This document shows positions 20,749 to 29,920 of a stretch of DNA of 44,568 nt, piece by piece (within the stretch, counting starts at the first letter, position 1; the number at the start of each line of letters is the position of its first letter). The DNA is from an uncultured bacterium (GTDB lineage: Bacteria; SAR324; NAC60-12). A program made the translations under genes and the position numbers. The notes below the pieces were generated by a model. It saw only the letters and a program-made list of their open reading frames with translations, ran no database searches and was not told the DNA's origin. The stretch spans positions 1-44,568 of the forward strand of contig CAXGMD010000017.1 of the NCBI GenBank assembly GCA_964010765.1. The letters are read 5' to 3'.

Positions 20749-20922
20749 TTATTCCAGAGGCGTTGCACAGAATCCACCGGAGGCCTGGGCTCCTGAGCCA
20801 AAAGCCAGTGGAGGAGGCGCTTGGAAGGGGTCAATCGGAGCACTGAAGAGCAAGTCGAGAAACAGCAACCCAAATAGTCCGAGCAATAGCACACCAATAG
20901 CGTGGGAACGTTGGAGAGTCAT
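20749..20922 (-). CDS. Unannotated 57-aa single-TM peptide with Gly/Pro-rich tail and one Cys near the C-terminus
   Basis: Hand translation MTLQRSHAIGVLLLGLFGLLFLDLLFSAPIDPFQAPPPLAFGSGAQASGGFCATPLE*. ATGA overlap with the yeeE stop and a GAGGAG SD 5 nt upstream. Confidence 0.8.
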   Translation of the reverse strand: MTLQRSHAIGVLLLGLFGLLFLDLLFSAPIDPFQAPPPLAFGSGAQASGGFCATPLE

Positions 20923-22070
20923 CTCTTCTCCTCAAGCAAGTGGTTGCGTAGTCGGACACCAAGCAGGGATCCGGCAAAGGCAGCGATGAACCAGACCCAG
21001 CCATGCAGGCTACCGGTCGAGATGCCACTGAAAAATGCGCCAACGTTGCAGCCATAGGCAAGGCGTGACGCATACCCCATCAGCAGAGCGGCTAGAGCAC
21101 CAACGATCCAAAGCCGAGTGGGAAGAGAAACCTGAGCAGCTAACGGTCCCTTCCAACGAGCAGCAATTCCAGCCCCTAACAATAAGCCGAAGTCTGTCAC
21201 TGATGTGATGTCTAGCAGCAAGCTTTGAGTCAAACGCTCAGCATTGCCGGCACCATTCCAGAAAGCAAAGCCCGCTAGTTCCATCCCCGACCAGTGTGCC
21301 AGCTTGGCACCCCATAAGCCTAGCCCATAAACCACTCCCCAGGGCTGTCCAGCCACCAACAGGTTGAGCACCGCCAATCCTGCCAGGCACAAAGCAGCAA
21401 TCCAGAGTCGACGCGGCAGGGTGCGCTCTGTCACGGGCATCCACTGTCGGAACCACCAGCCCAGCCCGGTCAGGATGGCCAGGGTCAGCAGGATGGCACC
21501 GGAGGTTCCCAGCCAATCGCTCAATGCGATGGGAGGCAACTGGCCCAGGGCATGCCACTCCGGCAGGTGCAGGGTTCCAAGGAAACTCCCGGCAATGAAG
21601 AAGGGCAGGGCCCAGAGACCCATCAGGTTGCCGCTGCCAGCGTTGACAAGGGTCCCGGAACCACAGCCCAGCACGACCTGCATTGCAGCCCCGAAGACAA
21701 AGGCCCCGAAGATCATCGCGACCCCCACTGGAGCTGTGGCTCCTATCAATTCACCCGCCGCTATTTCCAGTAGAAAGAGACTGGGCAGGGCCGTCAGCCC
21801 GATGGCCAGCAGTTGAGCCTGCAAGCCGTGGGTGTTGCGCTGTAGGATCGCTTGCCGCCAGGGACCTGCAAAGCCAAAACGCAGACCCTCCAGGGTGATG
21901 CCGAAGCCCAGCCCGATGGCCAGCAGTAGGCCTTGCCGGAGTCCAGCATAGATCGCCAGTACTAGGACCAGTAGCGTAGTTCCTATTCCAAGTAGGATAC
22001 GGAGTCGTCGTTGCCTCACATCATTGTTAGGGTCAGCAGCAGTTGTGGTGGTGGAACTCATCAGATTCAT
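20919..22070 (-). CDS. YeeE/YedE (TsuA-like) sulfur-compound transporter
   Basis: Multi-TM protein with two Cys motifs (VLGCGSG; AYGCNVGAFFSG). ATG 22070 lies 4 nt after the rhodanese stop. Confidence 0.88.
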   Translation of the reverse strand: MNLMSSTTTTAADPNNDVRQRRLRILLGIGTTLLVLVLAIYAGLRQGLLLAIGLGFGITLEGLRFGFAGPWRQAILQRNTHGLQAQLLAIGLTALPSLFLLEIAAGELIGATAPVGVAMIFGAFVFGAAMQVVLGCGSGTLVNAGSGNLMGLWALPFFIAGSFLGTLHLPEWHALGQLPPIALSDWLGTSGAILLTLAILTGLGWWFRQWMPVTERTLPRRLWIAALCLAGLAVLNLLVAGQPWGVVYGLGLWGAKLAHWSGMELAGFAFWNGAGNAERLTQSLLLDITSVTDFGLLLGAGIAARWKGPLAAQVSLPTRLWIVGALAALLMGYASRLAYGCNVGAFFSGISTGSLHGWVWFIAAFAGSLLGVRLRNHLLEEKR

Positions 22071-22074
22071 TGAC

Positions 22075-23052
22075 TCAGAAGGTATTGGCAAACCACTGCT
22101 TGGTGTTCAGCCAGGCCCACTTGAGGCGTCCTGGCACGTTGTCCATTGGCAGGCCAGCAGCAGACCACTCGACCATTGACTCCGGATAGAGCTTGACACC
22201 TGGCTGGCCAACCACTTCGCTCAGCACGAACCAGTTGGTGGCAGCCCAGTGTCCTGTGTTGCAGAAAGAGACAGTGACTTCTGCTTGGGTCAGGTCATTT
22301 TGCTGGGCCAGGGTCTGCAGTTGTTCTGGGGCTTCCAACAGAGGTCCTCCGGAACGAAACCACTGCTTGTTGTCGAAGTCCTCGGCTCCTGCGATTGTAC
22401 CGGGCTTAGCAGCAGCACCGTGCCATTTCTCACCAGCAAAGAAATCTGCGGGACGGGCATCGAGCAGCTTAGTATTTGTTTGCTTGAGTTGCTGTTCCAC
22501 GTCACTTGTGGAGGCCAGCCAGTCGGCTTGGATCGTGGCTGGATAGCTGCTGGGAGTCACCGTGGCGGTATCCTTAGAGATGGGCAGTCCTGCTTGTTTC
22601 CAGGCCAAGAAACCACCGTCAACAACAGCCAACTGTTGTAGTCCTGCGGTCTTGAGGGTCCAGTAGACTCGAGCCGCTGCACCGAAGTCACTGTAGGAAT
22701 CTCCTTTGTGCAGGACCACGGTCGGGGTTTCTGCATTCAAACCAAGTCCCTGGACGAGTGCGGTCAATTGGGCTTGTGGAAGGAACTTCCCTGGATTTTC
22801 AGCCGGTCCACGCCAGTTACCGTAAGGTGAAGAGAGTGCACCAGGGATATGACCGGCATTGTAGGAGCTATCTGGATCAAGCGCATTTGGTGGACGGATG
22901 TCAATGATGGTGACAGCGTCGGAGTGAGCTTGAAGTATTTGATTTAACTCATTGGCTGAGAGCAACGGCTTCCAGCCGGAGACCGAATTAGCAAAAGCGA
23001 AGCTACTAGCTAAAACCAGCAGTAAAGTAGAGAAAAGAGAGCGTATGTTCAT
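22075..23052 (-). CDS. Secreted tandem-domain rhodanese/sulfurtransferase, copy B
   Basis: Signal peptide (AFA), GHIPGA, AARVYW, LLDARP, active-site loop CNTGHWA and LYPESMVEWS. Confidence 0.9.
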   Translation of the reverse strand: MNIRSLFSTLLLVLASSFAFANSVSGWKPLLSANELNQILQAHSDAVTIIDIRPPNALDPDSSYNAGHIPGALSSPYGNWRGPAENPGKFLPQAQLTALVQGLGLNAETPTVVLHKGDSYSDFGAAARVYWTLKTAGLQQLAVVDGGFLAWKQAGLPISKDTATVTPSSYPATIQADWLASTSDVEQQLKQTNTKLLDARPADFFAGEKWHGAAAKPGTIAGAEDFDNKQWFRSGGPLLEAPEQLQTLAQQNDLTQAEVTVSFCNTGHWAATNWFVLSEVVGQPGVKLYPESMVEWSAAGLPMDNVPGRLKWAWLNTKQWFANTF

Positions 23053-23147
23053 GTTAGTTCTCAGTGAAAAAATCAAAAATAGACCAATTGATTATAGAAA
23101 AGTTATGTATGATTTGAAGGTAGGTAGCCATTAGCCTTCAATACTCC

Positions 23148-23741
23148 TTAAGAAGCCTGCTGAGACTGAATTTTCCTGACGCATTGATAGAGATTTTCTA
23201 ACTTGGAGTCATGAATTTGAGCCTTGCGAAGATACTGAATCGTTTGCTTCAGGTACTCAACACATGGACCCCGTTTTCCTTTGGCTTCCAGAATTCGTTT
23301 TCCTTTGGCTTCCACCTGCATTGTGGGGCAGACGTATTTGGGATGATCCAGTCTGACGACGAAGGCAATCGCTTCCAAGTTCCCTATCTCTGATTCAACA
23401 CGAACCCATTGTGGTTCATAGGCCTCTGTGATCATCTCCCTTTCCCAAATTTGGACCAGTTGGGTGTCCTTCAACTCCGGAGGAATCCGCAATGCCCGAC
23501 CAATACAGGACCCACCTGGTTCAAGTCCGAGGACTAATCCTGGAAATTCCTTGATTCCTCGATGCTCCGTACTCCAAAGACAAAAACTCCGATGGAATCC
23601 TTGAATTGTAGCCAGAATTGATTGATCAAAGGAAATTTCTGGATTCCACATCAAAGATCCGTAGGCAAAAATCCAGATTTCCTGGTCAGGAGGTCGCTGA
23701 TTCAGGATACTTTGGAGAGAGAAATTCACTGGAGTCACCAA
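23148..23741 (-). CDS. chaC: ChaC family glutathione-specific gamma-glutamylcyclotransferase
   Basis: WIFAYGSLMWNP, HRG..PGLVLGL and WEREM motifs. Start uncertain. Confidence 0.88.
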   Translation of the reverse strand: MVTPVNFSLQSILNQRPPDQEIWIFAYGSLMWNPEISFDQSILATIQGFHRSFCLWSTEHRGIKEFPGLVLGLEPGGSCIGRALRIPPELKDTQLVQIWEREMITEAYEPQWVRVESEIGNLEAIAFVVRLDHPKYVCPTMQVEAKGKRILEAKGKRGPCVEYLKQTIQYLRKAQIHDSKLENLYQCVRKIQSQQAS

Positions 23742-23891
23742 AAAAATTTATGAGTAAGATAGGTTTTTCAGCATTGTTGATCAGGTGCCTTTTGAGCAAA
23801 ATTTCTACCTTTGAAGGATACCTTAACTCCTGCTAAGTTGTCACTTTCGTTGGCTGAAAAAAAACTTTGCAGGAGTCTCCTTTTCGAGTGT

Positions 23892-24869
23892 TCAGTTGAA
23901 CTTAGATACGAGCCATTGCTTGGTAGACAACCAGGCCCACTCTAGGCGGTTGGGGACATTGTCCATTGGCAGATTGGCGGTGGACCATTCAACTAATGAT
24001 TCAGGATATAGTTTAACATTCTGCTTACCGGCGATTTCACTGAGCACAAACCAGTTGGTAGCAGCCCAGTGTCCTGTATTGCAGAAGGAAACAGTGATTT
24101 CAGCCTGGCCGAGCTTATTCTCCTGCACCAGATTCTGTAGTCGTTCCGGGGATTCGAGCAAGGGACCACCGGAGTGAAACCAGCGCTCATTATCGAAAGC
24201 CACGGCTCCAGCGATGGTTCCAGGTTTACTGGCAGCTGGATGCCAACTCAGGCCTTCGAAAAAGGAGTCGGGTCGGGCATCCAGTACCTGGAATCCAGGC
24301 TTGTTGAGGTATGCTTCGACCTCAGCTGTCTGTGCCAGCCAGTGAGGTTGGATTTGGGCAGGAAAGTCACTTGGCAGTGGAGTTTCCAACTCCGTCGAGA
24401 TCGGCAGACCCGACTGTTTCCAGGCCTGGAAGCCACCATTGAGGATTGCCAGGTTGGTCAATCCAGCGGTCTTGAGAGACCAGTAGACACGAGCTGCTGC
24501 GCCAAAGTCACTGTAGGAATCCCCACGGTGTACGACGACGACAGGGGTATCAGCCTCCGCCCCAAGTGCCTGGACGAGCCAGGTCAGCTTGTCCTGGGTG
24601 ATGAACTTGCCAGGATTGTCGGGTTGCCCACGCCAAGTCGCATAGGGGGAAGAGATCGCACCAGGGATGTGCCCCGCATTGTAGGAGGCGTCCGGTTCCT
24701 TGGCATCTAGGGCCCGGATGTCAACGACAGTTGCGGCAAAGGGATCTTCTTCGAGAAGTTCATGCAACTTGTCTACGGAGAGGAGAGGCTTCCAGTTGGA
24801 AAGTTCACTGGCGAAAGTTACGCTGGTAATCAAGGTGAGCAGTCCGATGAGCAAAAGACGCAGTTTCAT
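23892..24869 (-). CDS. Secreted tandem-domain rhodanese/sulfurtransferase, copy A
   Basis: Signal peptide (TFA), GHIPGA, CNTGHWA and LYPESLVEWS. AGGAG SD. Clear paralog of 22075..23052. Confidence 0.9.
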   Translation of the reverse strand: MKLRLLLIGLLTLITSVTFASELSNWKPLLSVDKLHELLEEDPFAATVVDIRALDAKEPDASYNAGHIPGAISSPYATWRGQPDNPGKFITQDKLTWLVQALGAEADTPVVVVHRGDSYSDFGAAARVYWSLKTAGLTNLAILNGGFQAWKQSGLPISTELETPLPSDFPAQIQPHWLAQTAEVEAYLNKPGFQVLDARPDSFFEGLSWHPAASKPGTIAGAVAFDNERWFHSGGPLLESPERLQNLVQENKLGQAEITVSFCNTGHWAATNWFVLSEIAGKQNVKLYPESLVEWSTANLPMDNVPNRLEWAWLSTKQWLVSKFN

Positions 24870-25098
24870 CAGTTTTCTCCTGGAGAGAAGTTGGCAAAGC
24901 AGGGCAAAACGATGGCCCAGAACATCAGCAAATGTGGAGAAGCTTTCCCCAGTGGGGAACGTTCTCGGTCAACGAAAACAACAGGCGAGGAGCGTTTTGG
25001 AGAGGAACCTGCGGGAGGCTCTAGAGCAAACGCACTCGCGAAAAATTCAGTGAATGATCAGAATCGGGAAACGAATCAGGAATGTGTGAACAGAGTGT

Positions 25099-25224
25099 TC
25101 AGCAACAGCAGGTAGGACAGCAACAGCAGGGAGTAACAGAGGCAACGACGGCAGCAGTCAGAGAAGTCTGGGAAAGGCTCGAACGCCCGGAGCGGAAAAA
25201 CGGTATATAGGGTAGAGAGTTCAT
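25099..25224 (-). promoter_or_regulatory. Polycysteine leader micro-ORF 2 (41 aa)
   Basis: Hand translation MNSLPYIPFFRSGRSSLSQTSLTAAVVASVTPCCCCPTCCC*. Seven of the last nine codons are TGY, followed by TGA. Confidence 0.75.
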
Positions 25225-25308
25225 CTTTCTATCTGATTCGAAAAAGTTTTTGGAGAAATTGGCGCTAGGGCCAAGGATGCGGCTAGGCCGCTGTGAAGAG
25301 GACCTGTA

Positions 25309-25386
25309 TCAACAACAGGTCAAACGACAACAACAGTAACAATCGGCTAGGGTACCGAATCGAATGTCTTTGCATGAGAAAGGCAT
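25309..25386 (-). promoter_or_regulatory. Polycysteine leader micro-ORF 1 (25 aa)
   Basis: Hand translation MPFSCKDIRFGTLADCYCCCRLTCC*. Seven Cys, six of them in the last ten codons, followed by TGA. Confidence 0.72.
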
Positions 25387-25412
25387 TACTGTTGTCCGAA
25401 AAGAAGGAATTT

Positions 25413-25436
25413 AAAAAATTCGATATCGAAGTTTTT
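25413..25436. promoter_or_regulatory. Near-perfect 24-bp palindrome, candidate operator
   Basis: AAAAA-A-TTCGATATCGAA-G-TTTTT in the divergent promoter region, 26 nt upstream of leader ORF 1. Confidence 0.4.
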
Positions 25437-25625
25437 CGTAGGCCGAGCACAAAGGCAAGCATTTTTTGCAGGTGCGAGAATACTTAGGGTAACGTGTCAT
25501 CGGTTGCCGGCTTTTTTCACCAATCTTTCTCAGGTGTTGAGAATGGTTTGATCTTCTACTGACTATTATCGAAGATTAGAAGAAATCTGGTCTTTCATCT
25601 CAACCACACATGCTTTGGAGGAAAC

Positions 25626-26618
25626 ATGCCCTATGATGCCGCTGATAACCGTTACGAATCTGCTCACTATCGTCGCTGTGGGAAATCTGGACTACACTTG
25701 CCCGAGGTGTCCCTAGGGCTTTGGTACAATTTTGGTGGAGTCGATCCTCTGGAAAATATGCGAGAGATGCTCCGACGGTCTTTTGACCTCGGGATTACGC
25801 ACTTTGATCTTGCCAACAATTATGGTCCCCCTCCTGGTTCGGCTGAAACCAATTTCGGGCGGATCTTTGCCGAGGACTTCAAGCCCTATCGCGATGAATT
25901 GGTGATTTCCAGTAAAGCTGGCTACCACATGTGGCCTGGGCCCTACGGAGAATGGGGCTCTCGCAAGTACCTGGTGGCAAGCTGCGACCAGAGCCTCAAA
26001 CGGGTGGGACTCGACTATGTAGACATTTTCTACAGCCATCGGCCCGACCCGAATACCCCCTTGGAAGAGACGATGGGAGCGCTGGACTACATCGTTCGTA
26101 GCGGACGAGCGCTCTATGCTGGTATCTCAACCTATTCCCCAGAGCAGACACGCGAAGCTTCACGCCTCCTGAGAGAATTGGGAACTCCCTGTTTAATTCA
26201 TCAGCCACGCTACAACATGTTTGATCGTTGGATCGAAGATGGCCTGCTTGATGTACTCAAGGACGAAGGGATTGGCTGCATTGCGTTCTCACCTCTTTGC
26301 CAGGGAATTCTGACCAACAAGTACCTATCTGAAGACTGGAGTGGCACCCGTGCTGATAAACTGAAGAGCGCTTTCCACTGGGGTGATGAAGTGACTCAGA
26401 AGCGCATTGCGCGGGTACGTGAACTACAGAAGATGGCCGATGAGCGTGGACAGACAATGGCTCAACTCGCGATCGCTTGGGTACTGCGTCAGCCACAGAT
26501 GACCTCGGCGCTGATTGGTGCCAGCAAGGTCTCACAAATCGAAGATGCTGTGGGTGCACTCAGCAACACGCAGCTTAGCGAAGAAGAACTATCCAGAATC
26601 GAAACTATTCTCGGTTAG
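25626..26618 (+). CDS. mgrA: Aldo/keto reductase, L-glyceraldehyde-3-phosphate reductase (YghZ/MgrA) family
   Basis: SLGLWYNFG, FDLANNYGPPPGSAE, SKAGYHMWPGPYGEWGSRKY and HQPRY motifs. Confidence 0.9.
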   Translation: MPYDAADNRYESAHYRRCGKSGLHLPEVSLGLWYNFGGVDPLENMREMLRRSFDLGITHFDLANNYGPPPGSAETNFGRIFAEDFKPYRDELVISSKAGYHMWPGPYGEWGSRKYLVASCDQSLKRVGLDYVDIFYSHRPDPNTPLEETMGALDYIVRSGRALYAGISTYSPEQTREASRLLRELGTPCLIHQPRYNMFDRWIEDGLLDVLKDEGIGCIAFSPLCQGILTNKYLSEDWSGTRADKLKSAFHWGDEVTQKRIARVRELQKMADERGQTMAQLAIAWVLRQPQMTSALIGASKVSQIEDAVGALSNTQLSEEELSRIETILG

Positions 26619-26704
26619 TCTGTTGAACGGAGGTACTACGAGGTACCTCCTCTGTCTCAATGAAGTTGGCAGCAAGGGCTGCCAACGCCTCTGAGGGAGC
26701 AGTT

Positions 26705-28855
<2,151 letters not shown>

Positions 28856-28933
28856 CGAGTTTGCAATTCAAGCTCACTAGATTTCGTAGTCCATCCGTTT
28901 CTTGCTAGACTCACCTAGAGTTCCATCCCCACC

Positions 28934-29920
28934 ATGTCAGTCATTCATCCTAGCAGCATCCGACAGGGAGATCGTCGTGCGATGGCCAAGGCAATCACCC
29001 TACTGGAGAGCACACACCCAGAAAAACTTGATCAGGGCCAGACGCTGCTGGAGGAGTTGTTGCCGGAGACCGGCAAGTCCCTGCGAATTGGCATTACTGG
29101 AGTTCCAGGTGTGGGTAAGAGCACCTTCATTGAAGCCTTTGGAATGCGGCTGATCGAAGCAGGGCATCGGGTTGCTGTAATAGCTGTGGATCCAAGTAGT
29201 CCAATCACCGGTGGAAGTATCCTGGGCGATAAGACGCGGATGCAACAATTGTCCTCACACCCACAGGCATTTGTACGTCCTTCACCCTCCTCTGGAGTGC
29301 TGGGTGGGGTCGCTCGTAAAACCCGGGAGACGATGTTGCTCTGTGAAGCAGCGGGCTACGACGTGATTATTGTTGAGACGGTAGGGGTTGGTCAGTCGGA
29401 GACCATGGTTGCTTCAATGGTTGACCTCTTCCTAGTGCTGATGCTACCCAATGCTGGAGATGAGCTGCAGGGAATCAAGAAGGGAATTCTGGAGTTAGCG
29501 GACCTAATCGTTATCAACAAGGCTGATGGTGATCAGAAGACCTTGGCTCAACGAGCTGTGCGAGAGTATCGAAACGCTCTCCATTTGCTCAAGCCGACTC
29601 GGGCTTCATGGCAGGCAAAGGTGCTTCAGTGCAGTGCCCTGGAACAAACAGGGCTGGTTGAGCTTTGGGAGACGATGCAAGACTTTCAAGAGATGCTGAA
29701 GACCTCGGGAGAGTGGGAAGAGCACAGGAGTCATCAGGCTGTTCGCTGGATGTGGAGTCTGATTGATGAAGAGTTGCGCCAAAGTTTTCGCAAGCATTCC
29801 CAGATCCAAGCTGATATCCCCAGAGTTGAGAAGGCCATTCGTCAAGGCAAGCAACTGCCAACTCGAGCCGCCCGATCTTTATTGGAAGTTTGGTTCTCTA
29901 GTAATACCCAAAATAAATAG
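28934..29920 (+). CDS. meaB: Methylmalonyl-CoA mutase-associated GTPase
   Basis: GITGVPGVGKST, DPSSP..GGSILGDKTRM, ETVGVGQSE and NKAD motifs. Confidence 0.95.
   Translation: MSVIHPSSIRQGDRRAMAKAITLLESTHPEKLDQGQTLLEELLPETGKSLRIGITGVPGVGKSTFIEAFGMRLIEAGHRVAVIAVDPSSPITGGSILGDKTRMQQLSSHPQAFVRPSPSSGVLGGVARKTRETMLLCEAAGYDVIIVETVGVGQSETMVASMVDLFLVLMLPNAGDELQGIKKGILELADLIVINKADGDQKTLAQRAVREYRNALHLLKPTRASWQAKVLQCSALEQTGLVELWETMQDFQEMLKTSGEWEEHRSHQAVRWMWSLIDEELRQSFRKHSQIQADIPRVEKAIRQGKQLPTRAARSLLEVWFSSNTQNK

Follow-up and report, generated by a model that had tools for sequence, protein, structure and literature searches.

Tandem polycysteine reading frames as candidate cysteine-sensing leader peptides ahead of a sulfur operon in an uncultured SAR324 bacterium

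The contig CAXGMD010000017.1 (assembly GCA_964010765.1) from an uncultured bacterium of the SAR324 lineage NAC60-12 carries, on its minus strand, two short open reading frames (sORFs) that end in runs of cysteine codons and stand before a rhodanese-ChaC-rhodanese-YeeE operon. The whole 44,568-nucleotide (nt) stretch, referred to here as the window, is part of a 92%-complete assembly of 3.86 Mb. We propose that sORF1 and sORF2 encode ribosome-stalling leader peptides that sense Cys-tRNA ahead of this operon, a reading built on comparative sequence analysis to which we give a probability of roughly three in four. The sensing half of the proposal, in which the ribosome would stall on the terminal Cys tract, appears well supported by analogy with known systems and by the comparative data, while the further idea that the pair acts as a true two-stage gate strikes us as somewhat worse than an even bet. 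Five parts of the model are inferred: that the sORFs are translated, that ribosomes stall on them, in which direction expression is regulated, that Rho takes part, and that the two units gate multiplicatively.

Anatomy and conservation of the tandem sORFs

Both sORFs lie within a 756-nt gap (24870-25625) between an aldo-keto reductase gene and the first rhodanese gene, and they are 84 nt apart on the same strand. The original prediction had described two ATG-started minus-strand micro-ORFs at 25386-25309 and 25224-25099, each with seven Cys and a Cys-Cys-UGA end, upstream of and co-oriented with the operon. Reading of the sequence confirmed these coordinates, the gene positions and Pfam/NCBIfam matches agree with the arrangement, and a codon count returned seven Cys codons per sORF and a Cys-Cys-TGA end for both, with the refinement that one Cys of sORF1 sits early, at codon 5. 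The other six Cys of sORF1 fall within its final ten codons, giving the tail Cys-Tyr-Cys3-Arg-Leu-Thr-Cys2-stop; all seven of sORF2 fall within its final nine codons, giving Cys4-Pro-Thr-Cys3-stop. Each frame is placed as a leader peptide would be, in the 5' leader of the operon and on its strand, and each has its poly-Cys tract at the 3' end, as do the leaderless sORFs (LL-sORFs) of mycobacteria.

The downstream genes fit the supply of the amino acid that would be sensed, with the link to cysteine taken from what is known of the families. YeeE/TsuA-type proteins are thiosulfate importers, rhodaneses transfer sulfane sulfur, and ChaC-type enzymes break down glutathione to yield Cys-Gly; by analogy, the operon appears to be one for scavenging sulfur and cysteine. 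A search with the sulfite reductase of a relative (G024, see below) found no such enzyme in any of eight genomes of the window's genus, and the window's own 92%-complete genome, in which CysK-like genes are present, gave no match to PF01077. With no sulfite reductase found in the genus and CysK-like genes at hand, scavenging of reduced sulfur would be the likely route to cysteine there, and sources of reduced sulfur may be a requirement of the genus.

The pair stands out in its own genome. A six-frame stop-to-stop scan of the entire assembly for Cys-rich segments returned 153 segments with at least five Cys in some 10-residue window, nearly all of them out-of-frame readings of coding DNA, as well as 187 short segments (at most 100 residues) with at least four Cys in the final ten residues. 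Only 14 of these 187 have less than half of their length inside open frames of at least 120 residues; sORF1 and sORF2 are the two richest of the 14, and the sole ones that combine at least five tail Cys with an ATG. As the two richest segments outside long frames sit so close together on one strand, their pairing is far beyond chance. The next candidate in the genome (contig C113, 5 Cys) was rejected, since it reads antisense to a poly-Gln stretch of a DnaJ-like gene.

An orthologous rhodanese, at 86-96% identity, is present in five further genomes of the genus, all species-level; G006 has rhodanese fragments, and G001 and G002 gave weak matches. A metagenome scan added eight contigs with upstream DNA, and with one duplicate removed the comparison comprised 14 distinct leaders, one of which (G003) is cut within sORF1, leaving n = 13 for sORF1 and n = 14 for sORF2. 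Both sORFs are intact in every leader (13/13 and 14/14), always with the same ATG and the same stop, and every tail of either sORF keeps at least five Cys in its final ten codons. Individual Cys codons show synonymous exchanges between TGT and TGC, so the in-frame TGY (TGT or TGC) runs with such exchange, which the original prediction had proposed to look for before orthologous operons, were found in the leaders of the genus. Single Cys codons are also swapped for Tyr, His, Arg or Phe codons; since single positions are replaced and at least five Cys are kept per tail, it is the Cys run that is maintained and not each position. This retention in relatives of an in-frame cluster of codons for the sensed amino acid is a general feature of leader-peptide attenuators.

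Insertions and deletions, counted by eye on the leader alignment, follow the reading frames closely. The four events inside the sORFs (6, 3, 3 and 9 nt) are all multiples of three, as against none of the four found elsewhere in the transcribed leader (1, 1, 2 and 1 nt). Non-Cys residues, for which selection was judged by reading the peptides, vary freely within the genus.

Polycysteine sORFs in other genera of the family

The recurrence of poly-Cys sORFs before sulfur operons across the family is, among the comparisons made, what we take as the strongest evidence for the proposed device. Among the loci searched they are patchy and confined to four genera of one family. In G012, a genome of another genus whose rhodanese is 40% identical, a 28-codon sORF ending Cys6-Ser-stop lies just before a rhodanese-YeeE pair and is flanked by an 11/12-consensus promoter and a 13-pair terminator-like hairpin. 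G024 (genus g11) carries a 30-codon sORF ending Cys7-stop and a 34-codon sORF ending Cys2-Leu-Cys6-stop, with a 10/12-consensus promoter upstream and a 749-residue sulfite reductase with NIR_SIR domains downstream. The two G024 units align over ~190 nt, ~60 nt past the stop included, and an alignment that extends past the stop points to tandem duplication of the entire module. This independent duplication suggests that the doubled layout has been selected.

Single sORFs precede the sulfite reductase in three further genomes. G011 (genus g4) has a 39-codon sORF with the tail Cys4-Pro-Pro-Tyr-Ser-Cys2-Arg-Cys-Ser-Gly-stop before the orthologous gene, and G042 and G048 (genus g11) each have a 37-codon sORF whose tail, Cys2/3-Pro-Ala-Cys2-Arg/Cys-stop (loci L182 and L188), is nearly that of the sORF2 tails in the window's genus. 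A Cys3/4-Pro-Ala/Thr-Cys2/3 tail is in this way shared by two genera, and the likeness hints at one leader module that is homologous across genera and different operons. In G045 (L181) a Cys tract is present ~300-180 nt upstream of the sulfite reductase, and the ATG at which the G042 and G048 sORFs begin is out of frame with it, which might reflect a TTG start codon, decay of the leader or a misassembly. G047 (L180) shares its promoter region with G042, G045 and G048 and has no poly-Cys sORF, as if this one species had lost the leader.

Broader searches added little. When 41 related genomes were searched for runs of five TGY codons, G024 was the sole real new case; most matches examined were out-of-frame Leu, Ala or Gln runs (L129, for example, lies inside a signal peptide), and a further G012 locus (L140) was set aside as AT-rich low-complexity DNA. 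The 12-Mb G012 assembly gave 745 such matches against 493 in the reversed control, far above any relative. No convincing upstream poly-Cys sORF was found at 80 loci of alpha- and beta-proteobacterial rhodanese homologues, where L025 proved to be an out-of-frame reading of a signal peptide. As a separate observation on the operon genes, the second rhodanese copy of G004 (G004:C78:6768-7715) contains TAG twice in frame and is separated by ~5 kb from the first copy, farther than in the other genomes.

Leader RNA and its candidate output

Metatranscriptome assemblies from several studies contain the leader stretch, and we compared the contigs of four runs, bearing in mind that RNA contigs cannot prove starts, strands or absence. 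An X2 contig (record 18, 24288-25297) reaches from sORF2 to within the first rhodanese gene, X10 contigs form a tiling over 24889-25397 that covers both sORFs, and X1 and X3 contigs extend upstream to ~25680-25700. Almost no X2 contigs lie over 25354-25649 and none from X10 over 25428-25945, a pattern that, in contigs, cannot show absence. One X10 contig ends where the leader RNA might begin (Table 1), and a -10-like hexamer fits, weakly, an RNA start near 25397; the hexamer has no conserved -35 partner at 17 nt and was not called by the consensus scan. That promoter and terminator scan of 24600-25800 returned nothing above chance, with no promoter-like site between the sORFs. Farther upstream, a nearly invariant block may be a site for an activator or other transcription factor, a second control layer, or a part of the promoter or of that of the divergent reductase.

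A consensus fold of 13 leaders, on which all pair counts were made, provides a candidate structure in which stop-codon hairpins and pairing partners for the Cys tract are separate for the two sORFs (Table 1). The leader folds somewhat better than shuffled sequences (z = -2.06), and 97.6% of cells are paired over the entire fold. Two pairs of helix 1 are changed on both sides, one of them coupling a synonymous TGT-to-TGC exchange with a change in the 5' untranslated region; in the sORF2 helix, the pair at columns 243/290 is G-C in seven, A-U in five and G-U in one of 13 sequences; and the hairpin at the sORF1 stop retains an extra outer pair in L108 by a change on both sides. The long-range helices 6 and 7 contain two pairs changed on both sides and two that are broken in three sequences. 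Over the whole fold, changes on both sides affect five pairs, a number reached by 12 of 500 shuffles, and ten cells, a number reached by none of the 500.

Table 1. Positions of the sORFs, neighboring genes and predicted leader elements in the window
Feature	Position	Strand	Basis and remarks
sORF1	25309..25386	-	ATG start, 25 codons + TGA
sORF2	25099..25224	-	ATG start, 41 codons + TGA
Putative regulated operon, rhodanese-ChaC-rhodanese-YeeE	20919..24869	-	Domain matches, gene order
Rhodanese (first gene)	24869-23892	-	Pfam/NCBIfam; signal-peptide-like N-terminus
ChaC	23741-23148	-	Pfam/NCBIfam
Rhodanese (second)	23076-22075	-	Pfam/NCBIfam
Sulf_transp/YeeE membrane protein	22091-20919	-	Pfam/NCBIfam; start overlaps preceding rhodanese gene
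Aldo-keto reductase	25626-26618	+	Divergent from sORFs and operon
Nearly invariant block	25438..25467	-	Alignment of 13 congeneric sequences; flanks variable
-10-like hexamer	25407..25412	-	Alignment, weak; A at position 2 in 12/13, T at position 6 in 13/13
Possible leader RNA 5' end	25397	-	End of X10 contig (record 14, 25295-25397), 11 nt before sORF1 ATG; one run, weak hint
Helix 1	25388-25396 with 25326-25334	-	5' segment with sORF1 Cys codons 18-20; 9 pairs, 98.3% of cells paired
Helix enclosing sORF1 ATG	25384-25387 with 25363-25366	-	4 pairs
Hairpin at sORF1 stop	25301..25321	-	Loop with last Cys codons and stop of sORF1; 5 core pairs invariant, so no covariation evidence
Long-range pairing enclosing sORF2	25057..25237	-	sORF2 ribosome-binding region 25220-25237 with 25057-25075; helices 6 and 7; moderate
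Helix inside sORF2	25103..25160	-	25154-25160 with last Cys codons 25103-25109
Hairpin beginning with sORF2 stop codon	25087..25101	-	6 pairs, 100% of lettered cells paired; L106 form shortened
Untranslated spacer, candidate Rho loading region	24870..25098	-	229 nt; pyrimidine-rich, C 31%, G 20%; inferred
Small hairpin holding rhodanese Shine-Dalgarno	24876..24888	-	5 pairs, never vary

We hypothesize that when Cys-tRNA is plentiful ribosomes would run through the sORFs and terminate, and that when it is scarce they would stall on the Cys tract at the end of each sORF. A stalled ribosome would prevent the Cys tract from binding its partner, which is the RNA 5' end for sORF1 and a mid-ORF segment for sORF2, and would also melt the small hairpin at each stop codon. 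In doing so it would likely protect the C-rich, G-poor RNA beyond the sORF from premature, probably Rho-dependent, termination or silencing, and the protected leader RNA would allow the sulfur-scavenging genes to be expressed. Placing two sensors in series would multiply two read-through probabilities and make the response steeper. Pairing between the 5' end and the Cys tract, together with the helix around the ATG, may mean that sORF1 is read mostly by the first, co-transcriptional ribosome.

The Rho step is consistent with the composition of the leader, which is pyrimidine-rich (C 30% versus G 20%) with a C/G ratio of up to 2.2 after sORF1, and with a rho gene in the window's genome (712.7 bits). 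In the Escherichia coli tna operon, a stalled ribosome at the end of the leader ORF keeps Rho away in the same way. No terminator/antiterminator pair of the classical trp/his type was found downstream of a leader ORF. A weak hairpin followed by a run of five T (25065-25041) was considered as a terminator and rejected, with its outer pairs broken in G008, L104 and L106.

More tentatively, these elements can be joined into a single picture, which we hold to be doubtful as a whole. An old, homologous Cys-leader module would have become the sulfur regulon switch of this SAR324-type family, standing before rhodanese-YeeE in some genera and before sulfite reductase in others, and tandemly duplicated at least twice. 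The module would work with no intrinsic terminator: the first ribosome would read the Cys codons once, the Cys tract would then close the start site, a stall would shield the C-rich RNA from Rho, and two units would multiply the effect. In the window's genus, the chief path by which sulfur is acquired would be under the control of this switch.

Alternative explanations and known systems

Several observations weigh against sORF1 and sORF2 as Cys-tRNA-sensing leader peptides. All 14 leaders belong to a single shallow clade, with the neighboring rhodanese at 83% identity or more, and as the entire intergenic region is conserved too, conservation by itself discriminates weakly; the weight is therefore carried by the frame-keeping indels and the turnover of Cys codons. 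Outside the genus, the orthologous operons of genus g2 (G009 and G020, 65-67% identity) have no upstream poly-Cys sORF, nor do G047, G041 or any of the 11 more distant sulfite-reductase loci for which upstream DNA was available, and the G012 sORF offers weaker support since that genome is repeat-rich. With regard to the leader itself, sORF1 has no clear Shine-Dalgarno sequence, and the overlapping RNA contigs cover both sORFs with no single record spanning the two. The covariation lends modest support to the predicted fold, as the helices were derived from the same related sequences used for counting. No intrinsic terminator beyond chance was found, the one terminator-like match lying inside sORF1 where 0.9 were expected. 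Lastly, the rhodanese Shine-Dalgarno has an unpaired probability of 0.27 in all four states of constrained folding, with masked stalls or none, which rules out that the ribosome-binding site is sequestered in the mycobacterial manner under equilibrium, not co-transcriptional, folding; the Cys tracts pair instead with upstream RNA (25388-25396 and 25154-25160).

The alternative that survives best, although we consider it unlikely, is that only one sORF is a working sensor and the other is a decaying duplicate or has a different job, such as a loading site for the first ribosome, so that there is no two-stage gate. Neither unit shows a separate expression platform, the start of sORF1 lacks a clear Shine-Dalgarno and is buried in a helix, and one sORF suffices in G012, G011, G042 and G048. 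A decaying copy should show losses, yet every leader keeps the ATG, the in-frame stop and at least five tail Cys in both sORFs (13/13 and 14/14), and the second tandem pair, in G024, also has both copies intact.

Less probable still is that the sORFs encode functional Cys-rich micropeptides, for example carriers of metal or sulfane sulfur or precursors from which modified peptides are made, acting together with the rhodaneses. The adjoining sulfurtransferase genes, the conserved Cys-rich tails and the fairly similar N-terminal parts within the genus would all suit such a role. Against it, the sequence outside the Cys run shows many replacements at ~85-95% DNA identity and in-frame deletions of one to three codons, the number and position of Cys vary, and the Cys run is the sole feature in common with the G012 and G024 peptides. 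There are no genes for modification enzymes nearby, and a search of 5.8 billion predicted proteins found none that shares words with sORF2.

That the leader is an RNA-only element, a structured 5' untranslated region or small RNA in which the reading frames are incidental, is very unlikely. The folding advantage over shuffles and the several conserved helices, some with compensatory changes, do favor a structured RNA. Such an element leaves unexplained why indels keep the frame in four of four cases within the sORFs and in none of four outside, and why start and stop codons are invariant; moreover, the unrelated leaders of other genera share just an in-frame Cys run before a stop, and Rfam returned no family at gathering score in the window, with only chance-level matches (E > 1) in 24800-25700. 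Chance, or a by-product of a plus-strand coding frame, can be dismissed with still greater confidence: the reverse complement of the Cys tracts does read as Gln runs, an artefact that gave false candidates at other loci, but the poly-Gln frames have shifting ends and have lost their start codon in several relatives whereas the Cys frames are constant, and no comparable segment exists in non-coding DNA genome-wide.

The closest known systems to the proposed Cys-sensing leaders are the poly-Cys LL-sORFs of Mycobacterium smegmatis, established experimentally and represented by Ms5788A/Rv0815A of the 'Cys ribulon'; the operon under Ms5788A control includes the thiosulfate sulfurtransferase (rhodanese) gene cysA2 (Canestrari et al., 10.1101/834739). 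The two sORFs resemble these LL-sORFs in the run of Cys codons at the 3' end, in being the first frame of a sulfur/cysteine operon that includes a rhodanese, and in the presence of the device at several operons of one lineage. They differ in belonging to a SAR324-type lineage and not to Actinobacteria, in standing two in series, and in an RNA that probably has an ~11-nt 5' leader and would not be leaderless. The mycobacterial Cys tract pairs with the ribosome-binding site that serves the next gene, a site that stall masking does not open in silico here. Cys leader peptides were also predicted before cys/cbs operons of Mycobacterium, Propionibacterium and Bifidobacterium (Seliverstov et al. 2005, PMC1262725). 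That work describes Cys runs near the stop of the leader ORF and no conserved terminator hairpin, as in our leaders, and it proposes Rho-dependent termination for the terminator-less actinobacterial Cys leaders (PMC1262725). The cases it covers are single sORFs in Actinobacteria ahead of cysteine-synthesis genes, whereas the operon here is of a scavenging type.

The likeness to the classical trp, his, leu, thr, ilv and phe attenuators of enterobacteria lies in a leader rich in codons for the supplied amino acid and in a codon tract that pairs; unlike them, the window has no terminator/antiterminator pair, although its relative G012 does have a terminator-like hairpin. To our knowledge, cysteine is not among the classical cases. 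The two ORFs of the Salmonella mgtCBR leader respond to different signals, whereas both sORFs here carry the same Cys signal and the G024 pair are clear duplicates. The mgtCBR sORFs constitute the tandem attenuators mgtM and mgtP (PMC3641672). Serial repetition of a sensor for one signal is known to change the dose-response in tandem riboswitches and T-boxes, which are RNA aptamers or tRNA-binding leaders and not translated sORFs (PMC9481103). In the full-text literature searched, poly-Cys or cysteine leader attenuators are described only for Actinobacteria. The claim made at the outset, that no description was known of two such sensors in series or of this mechanism in a Gram-negative organism of this kind, holds within that literature, with the addition that a leader with two sORFs is on record for Salmonella mgtCBR. 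What appears new here is the lineage in which the proposed Cys leader-peptide sensor occurs, its serial doubling, its lack of a terminator and its different pairing logic.

If the proposal is correct, ribosomal sensing of cysteine on poly-Cys leaders would not be peculiar to mycobacteria and would also occur in an abundant uncultured marine lineage, where such leaders would control the acquisition of reduced sulfur. The repeated tandem duplication, in the window's genus and in G024, would then constitute a natural test of whether a stack of two identical translational sensors sharpens a response, an effect of stacking that has been explored so far mainly for riboswitches. The missing terminator, together with a Cys tract that pairs with the 5' end, would point to an output unlike both the classical and the mycobacterial mechanisms. 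For annotation, the case flags short unannotated ORFs that gene callers miss. On the far side of the aldo-keto reductase gene, the plus strand at 26660-29920 encodes a methylmalonyl-CoA mutase and its MeaB GTPase, an ordinary arrangement.

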